24,875 bases of DNA. Source: an uncultured delta proteobacterium. Lineage in GTDB: Bacteria; Desulfobacterota; WTBG01; CAIYCZ01. The notes under the pieces are model-generated. The model did no database searches, was not told the DNA's origin, and was given only the letters and a program-made list of their open reading frames with translations. The stretch is taken from the NCBI GenBank assembly GCA_963803975.1, contig CAWDOY010000033.1:1-24875 (forward strand). The letters are read 5' to 3'. Shown here in pieces: positions 2,330-15,637 of the stretch. A program made the translations under genes and the position numbers. The first letter of the stretch is position 1; each line of letters opens with the position of its first letter.

Positions 2330-2359
2330 TAAGAATGGTTGAGACATAAAAATGGTTGG

Positions 2360-2410
2360 GGAGTTAAGGAGTTGAGGAGTTAGGGAGTTGGGGAGTTAGG
2401 AAGGAGTTGG
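2360..2410 (+). repeat. 8-bp tandem array (GGAGTTRR) x6, locus A
   Basis: ggagttaa ggagttga ggagttag ggagttgg ggagttag (gaa) ggagttgg. Confidence 0.95.
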
Positions 2411-2507
2411 GGACCACGAATTCACGTTTGCGAGCTAGGTTGACACGCTATACACCTTTCACTTTTCACGGTTACGACGGTGCAGGTCACGGCAAGACGA
2501 GTCGCTG

Positions 2508-2548
2508 AGCAAGCGAGTCACGAGCGACGAGTCACGGCTCACCGGCAG
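2508..2548 (+). repeat. CGAGTCA-type heptamer block, locus A
   Basis: AGCAAGCGAGTCACGAGCGACGAGTCACGGCTCACCGGCAG; shares its start and end with 3881..3984. Confidence 0.85.
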
Positions 2549-2835
2549 GCTATTCACTGTCACGGATCATAGTGTCTTCGGTTGCTTGATGTGCATGAAA
2601 AAGCAAACATCGGTGAAACACACAAACGGTACTATTGGCAAACATCTGCAAATCAAGTATACTGAATGTCAGCATATCAAGCGGGTAAACGCCATGCTGG
2701 ATCTGTATGTCCACATGCTGATAAAAGGCAGAGTCGAGGTAAAAGGGGAGAGGGGAAAAACATTGATGATCGAAAAAATAGACACCCCGGATCACTTCAC
2801 GCTTCTCGGTTCTTATGTTTGCGACGACAATTGCC

Positions 2836-2864
2836 TTGACACACAATAGCCTCTTGCCTATACT
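2836..2864 (+). promoter_or_regulatory. Sigma70-type promoter of the small-protein/nucleotidyltransferase pair
   Basis: TTGACA-N17-TATACT, 40 bp upstream of ATG 2905. Confidence 0.7.
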
Positions 2865-2904
2865 TTTCTCATATAAAGCTCATTTCTTTCAAAAATCTGT
2901 CAAA

Positions 2905-3162
2905 ATGAAAACGCTGCAAAAACAGTCACTGCTTGCTTATCTGCAAGGTCATAAAGAGGCAAATGAACGCATTGCTGCCGAGCGCAAAATGCAACTGGCG
3001 CAATTAACAGAAAATGAAAGTCTGTCCGTATATGACAATCTTTGCAACATGTGGCAGGAAACATCATGCAATGAGGGAATTGACAAGCTTGATGCGCGCA
3101 TGATTGCGTTTCTTATTGCCCGCAGAAAACGTATGAACAAGCACTGTTTACCAAAGCAATGA
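2905..3162 (+). CDS. Small hypothetical protein (85 aa), putative antitoxin partner
   Basis: ATG at 2905 lies after the promoter; stop is 1 nt before the next ATG; looks helical (MKTLQKQSLLAYLQGHKEANERIAAERK...). Confidence 0.65.
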   Translation: MKTLQKQSLLAYLQGHKEANERIAAERKMQLAQLTENESLSVYDNLCNMWQETSCNEGIDKLDARMIAFLIARRKRMNKHCLPKQ

Positions 3163-3163
3163 T

Positions 3164-3730
3164 ATGAATCTGCAATTTGAAGCTGCTCGTGAACTCCACG
3201 CATTTTTTTCATCAAATAATATCAGCTACTGTATTATTGGCGGGATAGCCCTTCAGCACTGGGGGGAACCGCGCTTTACCCAGGATGTTGATGCAACAGT
3301 TCTGATTGCGCTTGGCGAAGAAGACAAGCTGCTTAAAAAAATATTTTCTGCCTTTAAACCGCGCATTACCGATGCATTTGACTTTACCCTTAAAAATCGC
3401 GTATGTCTGGTCTCAAGCTCTCAGGGGTGCCCAATTGATATTTCCTTTGGCATCCCGGGATATGAGGATGAGGTTATGCGTCGCGCTGTGGAGTGCACCA
3501 TCGGAGAAAATGTGGTTATTAGAATATGCTCGGCTGAGGATTTGATTATTCACAAGGCTGTTGCCGGCAGGCCCAAAGACCTTGACGATATTGAAAGTGT
3601 TATCATCCGGATGGCAAAAAAACTGGACGATGACTATATTATGTTATGGCTTCAGCAGTTTGCTGAACTGCTGGAAATGCCTGAAATAACCGATCGCTTT
3701 CAGAAACCATGGAGCATGTTTAATAAATAA
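3164..3730 (+). CDS. Nucleotidyltransferase (AbiEii/DUF6036-like, Pol-beta superfamily), putative toxin
   Basis: IIGGIALQHWGEPRFTQDVD (GG..DxD signature), IDIS, SAEDLIIHKAVAGRPKDLDDI. Confidence 0.82.
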   Translation: MNLQFEAARELHAFFSSNNISYCIIGGIALQHWGEPRFTQDVDATVLIALGEEDKLLKKIFSAFKPRITDAFDFTLKNRVCLVSSSQGCPIDISFGIPGYEDEVMRRAVECTIGENVVIRICSAEDLIIHKAVAGRPKDLDDIESVIIRMAKKLDDDYIMLWLQQFAELLEMPEITDRFQKPWSMFNK

Positions 3731-3741
3731 TCTTTAAATAG

Positions 3742-3804
3742 GGAGTTGGGAGTTAGGGAGTTGAGGAGTTAGGGAGTTGAGGAGTTAAGGAGTTGAGGAG
3801 TAAA
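3742..3804 (+). repeat. 8-bp tandem array (GGAGTTRR) x8, locus B
   Basis: ggagttg ggagttag ggagttga ggagttag ggagttga ggagttaa ggagttga ggagtaaa, starting 11 bp after the NTase stop. Confidence 0.95.
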
Positions 3805-3806
3805 GG

Positions 3807-3876
3807 AGGCACCCGCCTTCGCGTGGCGCTTCTGCGCGGCACACCACCACACCTTCGCGTCACGGCTGACGGCGGC
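3807..3876 (+). repeat. Two degenerate copies of the REP-like CCCGCCTTCGCG...CTACGGCGGG element
   Basis: aggcacccgccttcgcg is identical to 13994..14010; second copy reads caccttcgcgtcacggctgacggcggc. Confidence 0.65.
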
Positions 3877-3880
3877 TCAC

Positions 3881-3984
3881 AGCAAGCGAGTCACGAACGA
3901 CGAGATACAAGTCACTGGTCACGAGTCGACGAGTCACGAGTCACGAGTCACGAGTCACGAGCCACGAGTCACGGCTCACCGCAG
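3881..3984 (+). repeat. 7-bp tandem array (CGAGTCA)n, locus B
   Basis: agcaagcgagtcac... then gagtcac gagtcac gagtcac gagtcac gagccac gagtcac ggctcaccgcag; ends 4 bp from the response-regulator stop. Confidence 0.95.
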
Positions 3985-8815: not shown

Positions 8816-9445
8816 TTATAAATGCTTTTCATTGTTACCAGCTGCTTGAGTGAAAGAACTCTTTACCAGGGGGGCCAGGAGCAGGCCGATACATTTATAT
8901 CCGGCAACAGATAAATGCACCCCATCGCCTGAGTCATAGATATTTCGCAGATAACCGTGTTCATCCTGCAGCGCTGCAAACCAGTCAGCAAAAAGAACAT
9001 CCGGGTGGTGCTCGGCATAGTTTTTTATTTTATAGTTGAGCGCTTCAACCCTTGTTTCATAGCCGTCAATGCGGATGGGCGGGATGCCCGGCGCGATAAC
9101 CGGAAGGCCCTTTTCCCTGCACGATTCATAGCCCGCCTGGAGGTTATTGAAAATCTGCGCTTCCTCGATCATGCCGAGATCGTTGGTGCCGCCGGCAAGT
9201 ATGACCAGATTGAATGATGAGGTTTTCAGGGCATGCTGAAGCCTTATGACAATACCGCGAGCAGTATCACCGCACATGCCTTCATTGATGAGCTGATAAT
9301 CAGCATCAGGGTGTATGCGCAGCAATTCCTGCTTAAGCCAGAACTGGTATGATGACTCGGGATTGCCGCCCATCATGGGGTCATAATAGGGGAAGCCGGC
9401 AGTATGGGAATCTCCGATACATAAAACAATATATGATTGCGCCAT
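8816..9445 (-). CDS. SGNH/GDSL hydrolase
   Basis: GDSHTAG, INEGMCGD, GGTND and DGVH blocks. Confidence 0.93.
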   Translation of the reverse strand: MAQSYIVLCIGDSHTAGFPYYDPMMGGNPESSYQFWLKQELLRIHPDADYQLINEGMCGDTARGIVIRLQHALKTSSFNLVILAGGTNDLGMIEEAQIFNNLQAGYESCREKGLPVIAPGIPPIRIDGYETRVEALNYKIKNYAEHHPDVLFADWFAALQDEHGYLRNIYDSGDGVHLSVAGYKCIGLLLAPLVKSSFTQAAGNNEKHL

Positions 9446-9526
9446 ATGTATTTTGAAAAACAGCAGATTATTGCCTCGCGGTTGGTGGATGGCATATTAG
9501 CACACGCGGCCCGGGTTTACAATCTA

Positions 9527-9680
9527 ACAGTCTGTTGAAAAACACCCGTCTGCTTCGTTGCGCTCATCCTTCGTCATTGCGACGTACGGTACAGTACGCC
9601 TCATTCCTCTTGATTTCGCGCGCCTTGCATCCGGATGTTTTTGACCAGCCTGGGAAAAAACTACTTTATCAACAACCTGC
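9527..9680. mobile_element. MITE-like non-autonomous element with imperfect terminal inverted repeats, flanked by TA
   Basis: Left end TA|ACAGTCTGTTGAAAAA and right end TTTATCAACAACCTGC|TA (14/18 complementary including TA); an internal second right-end-like copy TTTTTGACCAGCCTG at 9638..9652; no transposase. Confidence 0.65.
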
Positions 9681-9696
9681 TATAGCCACACCGGGC

Positions 9697-9725
9697 TTGA
9701 CTCGAAGGGTGCTTTTGTTTATTGT
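9697..9725 (+). promoter_or_regulatory. Possible sigma70 promoter for the patatin-four-helix-amidohydrolase run
   Basis: TTGACT-N17-TATTGT. Confidence 0.4.
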
Positions 9726-9766
9726 CAGAAAGTAAAAAAACAGGTTAAGGAGTGTGAAGAGTGAAT

Positions 9767-9874
9767 GGTGAATGGGTGAATCGGTGAATGGGTGAATGGG
9801 TGAATGGGTGAATGGGTGAATCGGTGAATGGGTGAACCGGTGAATCTTAGCCTTTTGCCTCTTGCCTTTTTACC
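9767..9874 (+). repeat. 8-bp tandem array (GGTGAATS) x10 followed by a pyrimidine heptamer run (GCCTYTT) x3
   Basis: ggtgaatg/ggtgaatc/ggtgaacc units at 9767..9846; gcctttt gcctctt gcctttt tacc at 9850..9874. Confidence 0.95.
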
Positions 9875-9903
9875 CCATGATTAATGACGGCGACTGATGA
9901 TAA

Positions 9904-10752
9904 ATGATGACTGTGGAAGAATTGAAAAACAAACGAATAGGCGTTGTATTTTCTTCCGGCTTTTTCGGGTTTTTTGCCCATGCCGGCTGTCTTAAGGCAC
10001 TTGAAGAGCTGGGGATCAAGCCGGTCGGGTACGCGGGCACCAGTTCCGGTGCGATTGCAGCAGCGTTTGCTGCAGCCGGGCTGAGCGCAGAGCGTATCAG
10101 CGCTATTCTGTTTAATCTCAGGAAACAGGACTTCTGGGACCCGGAGCCGTGGTACAAAACAGCAGTGAGCGCTTTGAAGCTTTTCCGGGGCTCGCTCGGG
10201 TATCTGGAGGGAGAACGGTTCAGGAATTTATTGGAGCGCAACCTGCCGGTACAGCAGTTCCAGGAATTGAAAACCCCTTGTGTGATTGTGGGTGCAAACA
10301 TTACTAAAAAGAGACGGGAAGTATTCACTGCGGGAAGTATCAGTGACGCGGTGCAGGCATCAGGCACCATTCCCTGGACGTTTAAAATGAAAAAGATAGG
10401 GGAGGACTATTTTCTGGACGGCGGGCTGATCGATAAAGCACCCCTTGATGCGCTGCGGGCGCATGTTCCGGTTGATGTGATCATGGTCCATTATATTTCT
10501 TCTCAGGAGCTGAACGAAAACAGCAACTCTTTTTTGCTGAAAAAATTCTCTCCGCAGCGGGCATACGGCCTCTCGATAAGTATTGCCCGCCATGAACACT
10601 ACCAGGCGCAGAAGAAGCTTGCAGAGCAGCAGGGGGTAATGGTAATAGAGCTGAAGCCGGATCTCCCTGCGGTGACGCCGGACGCTCTTTATCTAGGCGA
10701 AGAAGCGTTTAATAGGGCTTATGAACAGGCGATAAAACATTTTAAGAGGTAA
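9904..10752 (+). CDS. Patatin-like phospholipase
   Basis: Gly-rich SSGFFGFFAHAG, nucleophile elbow GTSSG, catalytic LDGG. Confidence 0.92.
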   Translation: MMTVEELKNKRIGVVFSSGFFGFFAHAGCLKALEELGIKPVGYAGTSSGAIAAAFAAAGLSAERISAILFNLRKQDFWDPEPWYKTAVSALKLFRGSLGYLEGERFRNLLERNLPVQQFQELKTPCVIVGANITKKRREVFTAGSISDAVQASGTIPWTFKMKKIGEDYFLDGGLIDKAPLDALRAHVPVDVIMVHYISSQELNENSNSFLLKKFSPQRAYGLSISIARHEHYQAQKKLAEQQGVMVIELKPDLPAVTPDALYLGEEAFNRAYEQAIKHFKR

Positions 10753-10830
10753 AAAGGTAAAGAGGTAAAGAGGTAAAGAGGTAAAGAGGTAAGAGGAGGT
10801 GAAGAGGTGAAGAGGTGAAGGGGTGAAGAG
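10744..10830 (+). repeat. 8-bp purine array (AAGAGGTR), about 10 units, filling the entire patatin/four-helix intergenic space
   Basis: aagaggta aaaaggta aagaggta x4, agaggaggtg, aagaggtg x2, aaggggtg; contains the patatin TAA (10750) and the next GTG start (10823). Confidence 0.95.
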
Positions 10831-11176
10831 TCAACGATTTGAGGATCTTGAAGTCTGGCAGAAAGCATGTCAGTTATGCTTAAAAATATTTAAAGCTTTT
10901 AGAGACTGTAAAGATTACGGATTAAGGGATCAAATCACACGTTCATCTCTATCCATTCCGTCTAATATTGCAGAAGGATATGAACGTGATTCAAACAAAG
11001 AATTCATACGCTTTTTATATATTGCTAAGGGTTCCTGTGGGGAATTAAGGACTCAGATATATATTGCCATTGAGATTGGATTTTTAGAAAAGCAGCAGGG
11101 CGGCAATTTTATAGAAGAAGCAAAAGAAATATCTTATATGTTGAATAGTCTGATTCAGAAGCGCAAAACCTTTTAA
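10823..11176 (+). CDS. Four-helix-bundle protein (TIGR02436 / 23S rRNA intervening-sequence protein / Avd-like)
   Basis: FEDLEVWQKA..L, YGLRDQITRSSLSIPSNIAEGYER, EFIRFLYIAKGSCGELRTQ: the family signature. Confidence 0.95.
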   Translation: MKSQRFEDLEVWQKACQLCLKIFKAFRDCKDYGLRDQITRSSLSIPSNIAEGYERDSNKEFIRFLYIAKGSCGELRTQIYIAIEIGFLEKQQGGNFIEEAKEISYMLNSLIQKRKTF

Positions 11177-11206
11177 CCTTTTTGCCTTTTAACCTTTTAT
11201 CCTTAT
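11167..11206 (+). repeat. 8-bp pyrimidine array (AACCTTTT) x5, complementary to the upstream AAGAGGTR array
   Basis: aacctttt aacctttt tgcctttt aacctttt atccttat; contains the four-helix TAA (11174..11176). Confidence 0.85.
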
Positions 11207-11231
11207 TGACCTCATTAATAAAGGAGCCTTT

Positions 11232-12026
11232 ATGATCATCGATATTCACAACCACCTTACTGTTAAGCACAGCCCGTTCTATCTCCCGGCGGAAGAATAC
11301 CTGAAGGTTATGGATGAGCTGGGTGTCGATAAGACCGTTATTCTGGGGAAGGATTACGGGTTTCTGGGCGACCGTCAGAACTCAAATCTTCCTGATGCGG
11401 AAACAGCGGAGTTTGTAAAGGCTCATCCCGACCGCTTTATCGGCTTCAGCGCCGCCCATCCTGACCGGACTGAAAAGGAAAACCTGGAGCGCATAGAGCG
11501 GGCCGTGAATGACTATGGCATGAAGGGGATCAAGCTCAACCCGGCATCCGGCTTTTATCCGAATGACCAGCGGCTCTATCCCGTGTATGACAAATGTTTA
11601 AGCCTGCAGATTCCCGTCATGGTCCACATGGGCATTAAACCGCCTTCTGAGGGCAACCGGATGAAATACTGCCATCCGCTCTATCTCGATGACATCGCAG
11701 TGGACTTCCCCGATCTGACCATCATCATAGCCCACTCCGGCTATCCCTGGATCGAGGATACGATAACCGTGAGCCTTTACACGCAAACTCTTGTTGCCGA
11801 TATCTCGACGCTGAATCAGCTGGAGGAGGTCATGGGCTGCGAGGTGGTGGTGCCGACGCTGAAGCGGCTGACCGCCTCTCTCGGCGCCAGCCGCGTGGTA
11901 TTCGGCTCTGATGGGATTTTTAATCTTGAAGCACTTATCAGCGCAGTCAGGAATGCGCCCTTTCTCTCTGATGCCGACAGGGAAAGAATCTTCTGGAAAA
12001 ATGCAACGGAAATTTTAAAATTATAG
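11232..12026 (+). CDS. Amidohydrolase family 2 (TIM-barrel metallohydrolase)
   Basis: MIIDIHNH, GMKGIKL, PVMVHMG, IIIAHSGYPW, VVFGSD; RBS AAGGAG. Confidence 0.92.
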   Translation: MIIDIHNHLTVKHSPFYLPAEEYLKVMDELGVDKTVILGKDYGFLGDRQNSNLPDAETAEFVKAHPDRFIGFSAAHPDRTEKENLERIERAVNDYGMKGIKLNPASGFYPNDQRLYPVYDKCLSLQIPVMVHMGIKPPSEGNRMKYCHPLYLDDIAVDFPDLTIIIAHSGYPWIEDTITVSLYTQTLVADISTLNQLEEVMGCEVVVPTLKRLTASLGASRVVFGSDGIFNLEALISAVRNAPFLSDADRERIFWKNATEILKL

Positions 12027-12027
12027 C

Positions 12028-12504
12028 TTACTCGTCCCGGTGCCAGTGCACCCGGACATATTTTTCTCCCTCAGGGTACCGGATGTTAAGCTCTCCTTTG
12101 CACGCGGCGTGTATGGCTTCTCCAATGCGGCGCGCAATGTGCTCGTAGGTGGTCTTAATAGTTATCTTGTTGTTGTTATCTGCAATATCAATTATTCTCT
12201 CTAATGGTCTGTAGTTACGCTCATTGTTTTCAGTATTTTTTACAATGCTAAGAATTTCCTGCTTATGCTTTGATAAGAATTCACCCTCTAAAAATATAAC
12301 CCCGCCTTCATATTTTTCTGCTATCCTTTTGCACGCGGGGCATAAAAATTTTGCCGCGTTTGCCGGCGGTTTTTCAGACCACTTAAAATTGCCATTATGA
12401 AATACCACGCTGCATTTTTCACATACCGAAGGATCAGGACAATTTTCTTTCAAAAAATATGGGTCATGGTTATGCTCCTGGATTAGCTTATTCATCTTTG
12501 CCAT
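12028..12504 (-). CDS. BCAM0308-family (NMD3-like zinc-ribbon) protein
   Basis: HDPY, CEKC..VFHNG..KW, LCPACKRI, PLERII, TTYEHIARRIGEAIH, VRVHW; AGGAG RBS before ATG 12504. Confidence 0.75.
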   Translation of the reverse strand: MAKMNKLIQEHNHDPYFLKENCPDPSVCEKCSVVFHNGNFKWSEKPPANAAKFLCPACKRIAEKYEGGVIFLEGEFLSKHKQEILSIVKNTENNERNYRPLERIIDIADNNNKITIKTTYEHIARRIGEAIHAACKGELNIRYPEGEKYVRVHWHRDE

Positions 12505-12630
12505 AACTTTCTCTCCTTTTTTTATCAAGGTTGATGAATTGAGAAGTTTATACTAATGTCCACTTATTATTATAGCATTGTTGTCTGTTAATAACATGAG
12601 TTTAAAAACATAGCAGTAAAAAAGTTGTAA

Positions 12631-12683
12631 AAAAGGTAAAGAGGTGAAGGGGCAACCCACCTTCGCGCAAGGCTACGGCGGGC
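12631..12683 (+). repeat. Short AARAGGTR array plus REP-like hairpin upstream of cobD
   Basis: aaaaggta aagaggtg aagggg, then CCCACCTTCGCGCAAGGCTACGGCGGGC (12656..12683). Confidence 0.8.
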
Positions 12684-12793
12684 AGGCAGGCAAGAATGTG
12701 GATGCATTGAATGCGGAATAAGCTACGTGCCTCGTGACGCGTAAGATAAAAGTGAAACGTGGAATGTGGAAACTCAACTCATTGGAGATTTTG

Positions 12794-13870
12794 GTGAATA
12801 ATAAGCATGGCGGTACAATTTACGCAATCGCCCGCCAGATGGGAATAGAACCTTCGGAACTTCTTGACTTCAGCGCCAGTATCAACCCCCTCGGGTTTTC
12901 ACCGCGCGTTAAGAGGGCTCTGAGGGGACATGATGACGCCATTCTTCATTACCCTGACCAGGAAGCCCACGATTTTATACAGGAGCTTGCCCGATACCAC
13001 CGGCTTCCGGCGACCAATATTATTGCCGGCAATGGCTCAACTGAGCTTATATTTCTGCTGCCCAGGGTTATAAAAACCAAGAAAGTATTGATAGTTGTGC
13101 CGACATTTTCAGAATATGAATCAAGCATCAGACAGGCAGGCGGCAAAGTCTTCTATTTCAGGACAACCGAGGAGGAGCAATTTTCCATTCAGCCGCAGGA
13201 GGTATTGAAAGAGCTGCAGAAAGGCTATGATGCGCTCTATATCTGCAACCCCAATAACCCGACAGGGGTGCTGACCTCAAAAGAAGTGCTGAAGGATATT
13301 GCGCACAGTGCGCGGCAACGATCGACTGCGGTTATCATTGACGAGACATTCATTGATTTTAATGAAAACCAGTCTGTTAAACATGAAACAAAAGAGCTTG
13401 AAAATATTTATATTTTACGGTCTATGACGAAATTTTTCGCGCTCCCGGGGCTCCGGGCCGGATACCTTATTTCCGCAGCAGGTAATATTAAAAAGCTTCG
13501 CGAGCAGCAGGAGCCATGGACCATGAATGCTCTTGCCCAGTATGCGGGTGTTGAGAGCCTCAGAGACAAAGATTATATCCAGAGGTCATTGCACTATATG
13601 AAAACAGCACGGCATGAGCTTGCTGCCGGGCTGCAGCGAATTCCCTGTTTGAAAGTCTTTGCGAGCGGGGCAAATTACCTGTTGATCAAACTGCTTGCAC
13701 CGGCCCCGTTGAGTGTTTCCGGGCTTTATAGCAAGCTTTTAGAGGAGAGGATTATTATCAGGAAATGTAATACGTTTCAGGGAATGGGCGATAGGTTATT
13801 TCCGTATTGCAGTAAGAAAGAAAAGTGAAAACAAATGTTAATTGGAAAGCTGAAGAAAATGCTGCAATAG
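12794..13870 (+). CDS. cobD: L-threonine-O-3-phosphate decarboxylase (PLP-dependent); C-terminus frameshifted
   Basis: GTG 12794 with GGAGA RBS; HGG, LDFSASINPLG, YPD, GNGSTELI, CNPNNPTG, DETF, RSMTKFFALPGLRAGY; the expected YFRIAVR is in another frame near 13795; likely stop is TAG 13868. Confidence 0.85.
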
Positions 13871-13881
13871 AAAGAGTGGAT

Positions 13882-13984
13882 GAGTCGGTGAGTCGGTGAA
13901 GGTCGGGAGTGAAGAGTTAAGGAGTTAGGGAGTCAGGGAGTTGGGGAGTTAAGGAGTTGAGGAGTTAAGGAGTCGAGGAGTGAC
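13882..13984 (+). repeat. 8-bp arrays (GAGTCGGT x2, then about 9 GGAGTYRR units), locus C
   Basis: ggagttag ggagtcag ggagttgg ggagttaa ggagttga ggagttaa ggagtcga ggagtgac at 13921..13984. Confidence 0.95.
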
Positions 13985-13998
13985 AAGTCGAAGAGGCA

Positions 13999-14026
13999 CC
14001 CGCCTTCGCGCAAGGCTACGGTGGGC
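13999..14026 (+). repeat. REP-like hairpin copy
   Basis: CCCGCCTTCGCGCAAGGCTACGGTGGGC, 26/28 identical to 12656..12683. Confidence 0.85.
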
Positions 14027-14080
14027 AGTGCAGGCACAGAGGCGTCAAAGGCAGTAGCACCGTGCAACAGGCATTTTACT

Positions 14081-14121
14081 TTTAACCTTTCACCTATTCA
14101 CCTTTTAGACCTCTTGAACCT
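14081..14121 (-). repeat. Degenerate AARAGGT array on the minus strand, just after the radical SAM stop
   Basis: + strand tttaaccttt cacctatt cacctttt agacctctt gaacct. Confidence 0.7.
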
Positions 14122-14130
14122 GATTGCTGG

Positions 14131-15637
14131 CTATTTGTCTAATTCAGATTTAAAGCGCGGAGACCAGAAGAGCTTGCGGAAGTGGTAACCGTATACGGCC
14201 AGGCACACAACTTCTGAGAATGCGGTGCGATACTTTGAATATGAATTCTTGAGCAGCCGCCAGTAATAATTCTTAGTCTGTGTCCGGTCAATAATACCAA
14301 GATACCAGAAGGTGCGGATAAAGGTAAGGACATCATTTTTCTCAAGGTAAAATTTGGTCTTTGGCCGGTAGTCCTGCAGGAAGGTCATGATGCGTTTATA
14401 ATACATCTCCGGTGAATAGATAGTATTCATCACCCACTTATAACCATTGATAAGGGTTTCCCGGTCCATTTTGGGGATGAAGTTAGAGACTTTCCTGCGG
14501 ATCGGTATTATTGCAGGCACATTTAAACAGAAGCCGGCCTTCCTCTTCCAGACGTTTATAGAGCCGTGTTCCCGGCATTGCGGTGAGCAGGCCGATCATG
14601 GCCGTAACAATGCCGGTCTTCTGAATGAACTGTACCTGCCGCTGAAAGATATCCGGCGGGTCGCTGTCAAAGCCGATAATAAACCCCCCCATCACCGCCA
14701 GGCCGTGATTCTGAATGATGCGCACTGAATCAATAAGGCCCCGTTTAAGGTTCTGGGATTTGCCGCATTCTTTGAGGCCCTCCTCAGATGGTGTTTCAAT
14801 CCCCATAAAGACCTTATTAAAGCCTGCCTGAACCATGAGGTCCATCAGCTCTTCATCCTCTGCCAGATCAACCGATGCTTCGGTAAAGAAATTGAGCCGG
14901 CGCTTGCGCTGGCTCTGCCAGGTAATAATCTCCCGCAGCAGCGATTTCACCTTAACCTTATTGCCGATAAAATTATCATCAACAATAAATACAGTTCCGC
15001 GCCAGCCGCGGCTGTAGAGCGCGTCAAGCTCCGCTATCATCCGGTCATTGGTTTTGGTGCGCGGCACCCGGCCGTTCATGACGATGATGTCACAGAACTC
15101 GCAGTTGAACGGGCATCCCCGTGAGTACTGAATGCCCATGCTGACATAGTCAGATAAATGTATTAGGTCCCATTGAGGAATCGGCGTGGCATCCAGTGGC
15201 GGACGATTATGTTCCTCGTAATATTTTTTCGCAGTCCCGTTTTCGATGTCTGCAACAAAACGGGGCACGGTGAGCTCGCCTTCACCCAGTATCAGATGAT
15301 CCGCATCCTGAAAAACCTCCCGGTAGGAGTTAAACAGCGGGCCGCCGCACACGGTTTTAACACCGAGCTTGCGGCAGCGATCAAGCACGTTACGGGTGGA
15401 GCCCCATTGCGCCACCATGGCGCTGATGAAGACATAATCCGCCCACTGCAGGTCATCATCATGCAAGCTGCGCACATTCATATCCACCAGGCGTTTCTGC
15501 CAGGAAGAGGGAAGCATTGCCGCCACCGTGAGAGCTCCCAGCGGCGGGAAAGCGGATTTTCGCTGTACCACCCGCAGGGCGTGCTTGAAGCTCCAGAATG
15601 TTTCAGCAACCTGGGGATATACAATCAGGATATTCAT
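14131..15637 (-). CDS. B12-binding-domain radical SAM protein (DUF4070-like C-terminus), frameshifted near 14490-14520
   Basis: PPLGALTVAAMLP, GGP, GEGE, SRGCPFNCEFC, FIVDDNF, GIETP, GFIIGFDSD; ORFs 14483..15637 and 14131..14520 join. Confidence 0.92.

Follow-up and report, generated by a model that had tools for sequence, protein, structure and literature searches.

Known counterparts of the locus reported here include intervening sequences (IVSs) of 23S rRNA. The helix-45 IVS of Coxiella burnetii holds an S23p ORF within a 28-bp stem and carries tandem heptamers of variable number, the first of which is the site of RNase III cleavage (PMC4990558, in part). Avd, known from diversity-generating retroelements (DGRs), is a pentameric RNA-binding barrel (10.1101/2023.10.23.563531, in part). 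In the accessible portions of that paper and of PMC10053308 and PMC10910872, the four-helix-bundle family TIGR02436/PF05635 is named only in DGR or CRISPR contexts. Short tandem repeats form a separate body of literature. The heptamers GGGAATC of Xanthomonas and GGGGA(C/T)T of Nostoc place their purine strand just after stop codons and their pyrimidine strand before start codons (Rehm et al., PMC4692102, in part). TAACTGA repeats of Beggiatoaceae are described as spreading horizontally without a mechanism, and the possibility of a mobile repeat-binding protein has been raised (MacGregor, PMC4679880, in part). Four-helix-bundle genes go unmentioned in the available text of both papers (term counts 0). 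No description of flanking inverted arrays as a trait of TIGR02436/PF05635 was found in the literature searched, and the class of cassettes described below is undescribed in that literature, which consists largely of the main text of open-access papers.

The window analyzed here is a stretch of 24,875 nucleotides from an uncultured delta proteobacterium (contig CAWDOY010000033.1). The first-pass annotation, made from the letters alone, had proposed that complementary 8-bp arrays enclose an Avd-like gene between a patatin and an amidohydrolase gene. Tandem repeat detection, HMM searches, fold prediction and coordinates all agree with this (Table 1). The arrays were also said to supply the neighbouring signals, and all of these indeed lie within them, namely, the patatin stop TAA (10750-52), seven GAGGT and one GGAGG motifs resembling Shine-Dalgarno sequences, the GTG start (10823) and the TAA of the four-helix gene itself (11174-76). 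The AT-richness of the gene is equally evident. The GC counts of 18/60 and 30/60 given for short segments are exact, and GC content is 0.35 over the whole gene versus 0.51 and 0.52 for the neighbours. The arm complementarity score at this locus is 41, versus a maximum of 27 among shuffles (n=1000), and is reached by 8/12,508 windows of the genome. A short-read contig of run X2 covers patatin, array and gene with a left array shorter by 42 nt, indicating that the locus is real and that its copy number varies. Rfam gave zero matches in 9400-14200 of the window, and the results of a promoter and terminator scan were near chance level. Apparent frameshifts introduced by assembly interrupt many ORFs of the window as well as the gene for RNase III.

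Table 1. Array-bearing features of the window and the genes next to them.
Feature	Position	Strand	Remarks
Gene-less GGAGTT(A/G)A and CGAGTCA arrays	2355..2536	+	
Gene-less GGAGTT(A/G)A and CGAGTCA arrays	3739..3973	+	between two convergent genes
Gene-less arm stack before patatin	9761..9875	+	purine GTGAATGG array, then pyrimidine array of another unit
Patatin-like phospholipase (PF01734), upstream host gene	9904..10752	+	stop codon within first array unit
Left purine-rich arm	10744..10830	+	TRF: period 8, 10.6 copies of AAGAGGT(A/G), AAGAGGTA then AAGAGGTG; carries patatin stop, SD-like motifs, GTG start
Four-helix-bundle protein gene	10823..11176	+	117 aa; TIGR02436/PF05635/NF008912; predicted pI 8.7; HMM, sequence, fold
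Right pyrimidine-rich arm	11167..11218	+	TRF: 4.8 copies of AACCTTTT in 11167-11204, degenerate unit to ~11218; includes TAA of the gene
Amidohydrolase (PF04909), downstream host gene	11232..12026	+	
Gene-less arm stack after aminotransferase stop	13881..14125	+	purine arrays, small palindromic insert, pyrimidine arrays of several units

The window protein scores 129.3 bits (cut-off 24) and 132.1 bits (cut-off 33.8) with TIGR02436/PF05635, and only four-helix-bundle models match the cassette ORF in family searches. Its structure model (pLDDT 95.7) consists of four long helices and is similar to the five-chain structures 2GSC (Xcc0516) and 2RLD (BT_0352), with TM-scores of 0.81-0.88 and the best value, 0.88, for 2GSC, which is also matched by sequence (E 2e-16). 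Thus, the protein resembles these members of the family by HMM, sequence and fold. The match to Avd (4DWL) is weak (TM 0.80, E 0.06, 14% identity), and the proposed membership in an Avd-like family holds at the level of the modelled fold. By analogy with 2GSC and 2RLD only, the protein is predicted to be a homopentamer. Four-helix proteins are under purifying selection as judged from sequence comparisons, with dN/dS of 0.03-0.25 in 16/16 computable pairs (19 pairs in the set, three saturated). The viral collection gave no confirmed relative, and plasmids contributed 26 records, mostly cyanobacterial.

The first-pass annotation suggested that the gene and its arrays were inserted as one cassette, and called for a look at related genomes for an empty site. 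The amidohydrolase is present in 19/30 relatives, and patatin is kept upstream of it in G001 and G003 only. In G001, a member of the same genus, patatin is joined directly to the amidohydrolase; gene and arrays are absent and one degenerate arm unit is left. In G003, the gene at the same junction encodes another four-helix protein (40% identity) and is bracketed by GGAGTT/AACTCC arms. This second cassette type is also found next to a closely similar amidohydrolase on contigs of runs X3 and X4, and the window type on those of X2 and X5, indicating that this junction harbours both cassette types among close populations. The patatin-amidohydrolase junction is thus known in three states: with the window cassette, with an unrelated cassette bearing other arms, and empty. 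The same exchange of cassettes is seen at two further junctions (C44 versus G001 and C15 versus G002), and the C3 and C25 junctions occur either filled or gene-less, with arms in which several units are stacked together. The presence of a different cassette, or of none, at the same spot in close relatives points to a likely mobile cassette. Since G001 keeps a degenerate arm unit, its empty site may have arisen by deletion instead of representing the target before insertion. Shared sequence at this junction amounts to no more than a short T run, the flank is mosaic and there is no clear target duplication. No transposase, recombinase or reverse transcriptase (RT) was found in or beside the window cassette, nor were excised or circular forms observed. 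Joints that skip the gene in runs X1 and X2 were considered as traces of excision and rejected, because they have short sides with other letters between them and correspond to gene-less hairpins elsewhere. Assembled contigs of the RNA runs X19 and X20 barely cover the four-helix gene. Contig C19 of the same assembly (G000) duplicates much of the window in pieces at 85-98% identity and probably represents a second strain in the bin. For a frameshifted copy on C19, a genuine mosaic gene was considered and rejected: its sequence mixes the alleles of the two cassette types column by column, short-read contigs match one allele or the other with gaps, and the copy is most likely an assembly artefact.

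Complementary flanking arrays are strongly enriched among homologues of the window gene, a pattern that the first-pass annotation had proposed to test for. The set comprises 105 loci, made up of 30 of the 92 matches in class-level relatives and 79 returned from 424 cross-phylum relatives, minus four with short flanks. The mean arm score is 35.7 for cognate arms, 17.2 for non-cognate and 16.6 for shuffled ones. The 95th percentile of non-cognate scores is exceeded at 78/105 homologous loci versus 7/277 neighbouring ORFs, counts that overstate independence given the kinship among loci, and 27/105 loci fall below this threshold. The repeat unit varies from locus to locus and the two arms vary together: a locus's own right arm ranks first of 105 in 38 loci and among the top five in 77. 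Within the 78-locus set the left arm is purine-rich in 63 and pyrimidine-rich in three; polarity is apparently reversed at L073 and L104, where the pyrimidine arm comes first. The complementary block has a median length of 30 nt (IQR 27-38), or about four units; as a suggestion only, this length would match a ring of five subunits. A stop codon on the same strand marks the start of the left arm in 64/75 loci (median distance 3.5 nt; no matched control), a position that could equally reflect selection against other landing sites. This distance measure supersedes a cruder count of neighbour orientation (58:13 upstream, 49:17 downstream). In 15/105 loci, all of Gammaproteobacteria, tRNA-Gln immediately follows the cassette (L054, L061, L062, L067, L077, L080, L083, L088, L091, L096, L098, L099, L103, L114 and L117). 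The gene preceding these cassettes is presumably rpsI, which it resembles in its C-terminal sequence, and tRNA processing at these loci could report on the cassette RNA.

Several observations indicate that the repeat unit follows the protein and not the site. Among pairs of loci at different sites with non-homologous flanks, arms are cross-complementary in 31/46 pairs at protein identities of at least 70%, compared with 2% of 3268 pairs below 50%. For pairs at the same site with proteins less than 50% identical, the fraction is 3/22. In close pairs the cognate arm score is 40 versus a cross score of 30, so covariation of the arms is present within individual loci as well. Monophyly of proteins from the same site is rejected by the AU test at 3/3 sites (p 1.4e-6, 3.3e-4 and 5.7e-5), on a 28-row quick tree with groups set by site after the first tree was seen. 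The nearest relatives of the window protein come from Nitrospinota (77% identity), Ignavibacteria and Kryptoniota (66%), stand in unrelated gene contexts and share the AAAGGT/ACCTTT unit family with the window. Their clade with the window protein has moderate support (SH-aLRT 83-85) in a 112-row protein tree, itself a quick tree. Arm unit and protein demonstrably travel together between unrelated sites and phyla. The proposal that gene and arrays behave as a single cassette is supported, and the four-helix gene and its arms very probably form an exchangeable unit.

The genome from which the window derives contains ten PF05635 matches, six of them over the cut-off. All six have complementary arms, as judged by eye, each with a different unit: AGGCACAA, GGTTCCAA, TCAGC(A/T)A, AAGAGGTA, GAAAGGT and GATGAAT. 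A search that starts from the arrays, and that missed the cassette on C47, returned 60 complementary pairs, of which 38 are gene-less (gap <100 nt). Eleven pairs span 300-500 nt: six enclose members of the PF05635 family, one a GxxExxY gene, and four are weak (score 29-32). All seven strong pairs of this span (score at least 35) enclose a PF05635 or GxxExxY gene. Just 12 of the 266 stronger arrays lie within ORFs. Arrays are purine-rich in the sense strand after stops (52:8) and pyrimidine-rich before starts (36:18). The arm stack upstream of patatin likely consists of remnants of earlier cassettes. Two arm stacks of the window also contain a small palindromic element (13993-14030 and 3807-3850); it has nine copies in the genome, four within 120 nt of an array, and other small palindromes break up arms or ORFs at C9, C3 and L048. 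Elsewhere in the window, ~9480-9685 is occupied by a long, dispersed, MITE-like intergenic repeat that has 78 BLAST hits (60 nt or longer) in the same genome. Positions 2815-3730, flanked by gene-less arrays, encode a small protein that matched no family and a DUF6036/AbiEii-like nucleotidyltransferase; the two may be a toxin and its antitoxin. A second four-helix-bundle variant, scoring below the family cut-off (G000:C14:111429-112023 and L141), is located in what by eye resembles a type I restriction locus, 3 kb away from an armed cassette; it apparently has an extended C-terminus with an internal inverted pair of 9-mers.

GxxExxY genes (TIGR04256) have complementary arms, mostly of 9-mers, at 12/20 loci (L150, i.e. 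G000:C11:172-624, and L151-L169). An obligate partnership of the two families was considered and rejected, since GxxExxY is found in 12/31 genomes versus 23/31 for PF05635, and occurs without a PF05635 match in G006, G012 and G025. Array density shows no trend with PF05635 gene number in a small sample of seven relatives (53-140 kb each): G011, with no PF05635 match, has 36 arrays per Mb, and G003, with five matches, has none in 100 kb. A reverse search from the TAACTGA repeat identified inverted pairs at 63 metagenome loci, with a PF05635-like gene enclosed in 13 (11 distinct) and 50/63 pairs without one. The 13 loci that enclose an ORF of at least 95 aa comprise 11 with a PF05635-like gene and two low-complexity read-throughs. 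The family is a candidate for the mobile repeat-binding protein raised by MacGregor. TAACTGA arms surround two distinct protein subgroups, so arm recognition is not one-to-one. At L233, L242 and L261, a non-coding stretch within TAACTGA inverted pairs resembles RNase P RNA in its motif. At L246 and L253, heptamer arrays are read through in frame inside an aminotransferase-like ORF.

How these arms work is a matter of competing interpretations. The element could act as RNA in the manner of an IVS: the arms would pair in the operon mRNA, RNase III would free the ORF, and the protein would likely bind the stem, affecting its own translation or the decay of the host mRNA. The window locus on its own speaks for a sense RNA duplex. 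Its sense RNA folds at -127.6 kcal/mol (z = -3.07, 1/100 shuffles as good) with 42 long-range pairs from 10742:11218 to 10790:11168, five of them G-U, with the ORF in the loop and pairing of the left array confined to its 5' half; duplex energy is -49.4 kcal/mol in sense versus -30.9 kcal/mol in antisense. Cassettes are also co-directional with the host gene and start at stop codons, the genome has an RNase III gene (split in the assembly), the Coxiella IVS is cut at its first heptamer (PMC4990558, in part) and Avd binds RNA (10.1101/2023.10.23.563531, in part). However, over the 78 armed loci, G-U-type mismatches do not exceed A-C-type ones (166 versus 206; 30 versus 34 by locus), a comparison that register ambiguity in tandem arrays may blunt, and the more stable duplex is the sense one in 38 loci and the antisense one in 40, unlike in tRNAs, where the same strand-bias test gives 37:12. 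Of the long stem proposed in the first-pass annotation, the predicted fold stands at the window locus; a sense stem is favoured there, but selection for one finds no support across the 78 loci. G-U pairing at the window is locus-specific, and the lack of sense bias in mismatches and energies leads us to read the arms as strand-symmetric ends, with the RNA hairpin secondary. An RNA cassette of this kind also leaves the swap of unrelated cassettes at one site unexplained, and we consider it unlikely.

Sense orientation at stop codons would also fit retro-mobility, in which the protein likely recruits an RT in trans and cDNA of the hairpin RNA is inserted by its repeat ends. The Avd fold agrees with this, as Avd is required for DGR reverse transcription (10.1101/2023.10.23.563531, in part), and the genome has RVT_1 matches on contigs C50 and C47. 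Yet no RT lies near any array of the window, both RT loci being on other contigs, and identity to Avd is as low as 14%. By their motifs, the C50 and C47 loci resemble remnants of group II introns, which also speaks against such a role, and retro-mobility appears improbable. The arrays might instead be generic, slippage-prone intergenic hairpins inside which a gene merely lands, its protein having no role. The gene-less majorities of own-genome pairs (38/60) and TAACTGA pairs (50/63), the missing trend between array density and gene number and the arms around GxxExxY genes (12/20) are all in line with such passive capture. The unit following the protein across sites and phyla, the 7/7 strong pairs of 300-500 nt that enclose a PF05635 or GxxExxY gene and purifying selection on the proteins speak against it, and we give it little credence.

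Our preferred interpretation is that the cassette is a non-autonomous mobile element residing at operon stop codons, and we hold it, with the full mechanism outlined here, with somewhat more belief than doubt. The predicted pentameric protein would likely bind its own arms, which would serve as strand-symmetric recognition or recombination ends in the form of a DNA hairpin, a cruciform or duplex binding sites. At an occupied junction, alleles may spread when the host genes on either side recombine; entry into new junctions may proceed by way of the arms and use a catalytic activity provided in trans. Cassettes that decay would persist as hairpins without a gene and as solitary arrays. The RNA hairpin would be a side effect: it would render an insertion tolerable and, within rRNA, permit removal by RNase III, and ORF-bearing 23S rRNA IVSs would be copies of the cassette that landed in rRNA. 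Several facts weigh against this reading: the missing transposase, recombinase or RT and the lack of any excised or circular form, the degenerate arm unit at the G001 site, the two protein subgroups within TAACTGA arms, the 27/105 loci below the arm threshold, the preference for a sense RNA duplex at the window locus taken alone and the flat relation between array density and gene number. A broader version is a tentative one, on balance doubtful: a pentameric four-helix-bundle protein or GxxExxY nuclease may read a co-evolving 7-9-base code in its own inverted arms and drive insertion at operon stops, constituting a widespread transposase-free class that would be the source of ORF-bearing rRNA IVSs and of the heptamer and octamer repeats of cyanobacteria, Xanthomonas and Beggiatoaceae. 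Against a protein-arm code, the co-inheritance of unit and protein could be hitch-hiking. Comparing the binding of cognate and non-cognate arms, with swap pairs from the same junction as controls, would provide a direct function test for a large family of unknown function, and a protein that reads a repeat code would represent a novel type of ring that binds nucleic acids sequence-specifically. Binding of the arms by the protein would further connect an orphan protein family with the unexplained repeats of 7-8 bases in bacterial genomes. A mobile cassette also offers an origin for intergenic 7-8-mer repeats, reported as spreading horizontally without a mechanism (PMC4679880, in part), and presents ORF-bearing rRNA IVSs as instances in which a genome-wide element landed at a special site.

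The 23S rRNA IVSs of Coxiella, and of Leptospira as cited in PMC4990558 (in part), likewise have the same family within an inverted-repeat loop and variable heptamers in the 5' arm. The background on stem-loop IVSs given in the first-pass annotation is borne out by Coxiella, with heptamer repeats at the RNase III site (PMC4990558, in part). The window element is not a 23S IVS, because it lies outside rRNA, between patatin and amidohydrolase. More generally, cassettes of this type differ from 23S IVSs in their position at operon stops, in occurring several per genome with locus-specific units, and in an ORF under purifying selection, whereas the IVS ORF is decaying. The window protein shares with Avd (4DWL) its fold and basic character and differs in its low identity; since RVT_1 matches are confined to C50 and C47 and no RT is adjacent, the element is not a DGR. 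REPtrons and TIRtrons (PMC3733652, in part) and MITEs are similar in having a gene between inverted repeats and gene-less copies genome-wide. Unlike REPtrons and TIRtrons, the cassettes carry no tyrosine transposase as cargo, and their arms consist of tandem arrays (PMC3733652, in part); lacking a transposase, the window element is neither an IS nor a REPtron. The polarity of arrays in the genome studied here is that of the Xanthomonas and Nostoc heptamers (PMC4692102, in part), and the repeats of Xanthomonas, Nostoc and Beggiatoaceae are, like those of the window, arrays of 7-8-nt units that often form inverted pairs (PMC4692102 and PMC4679880, both in part).
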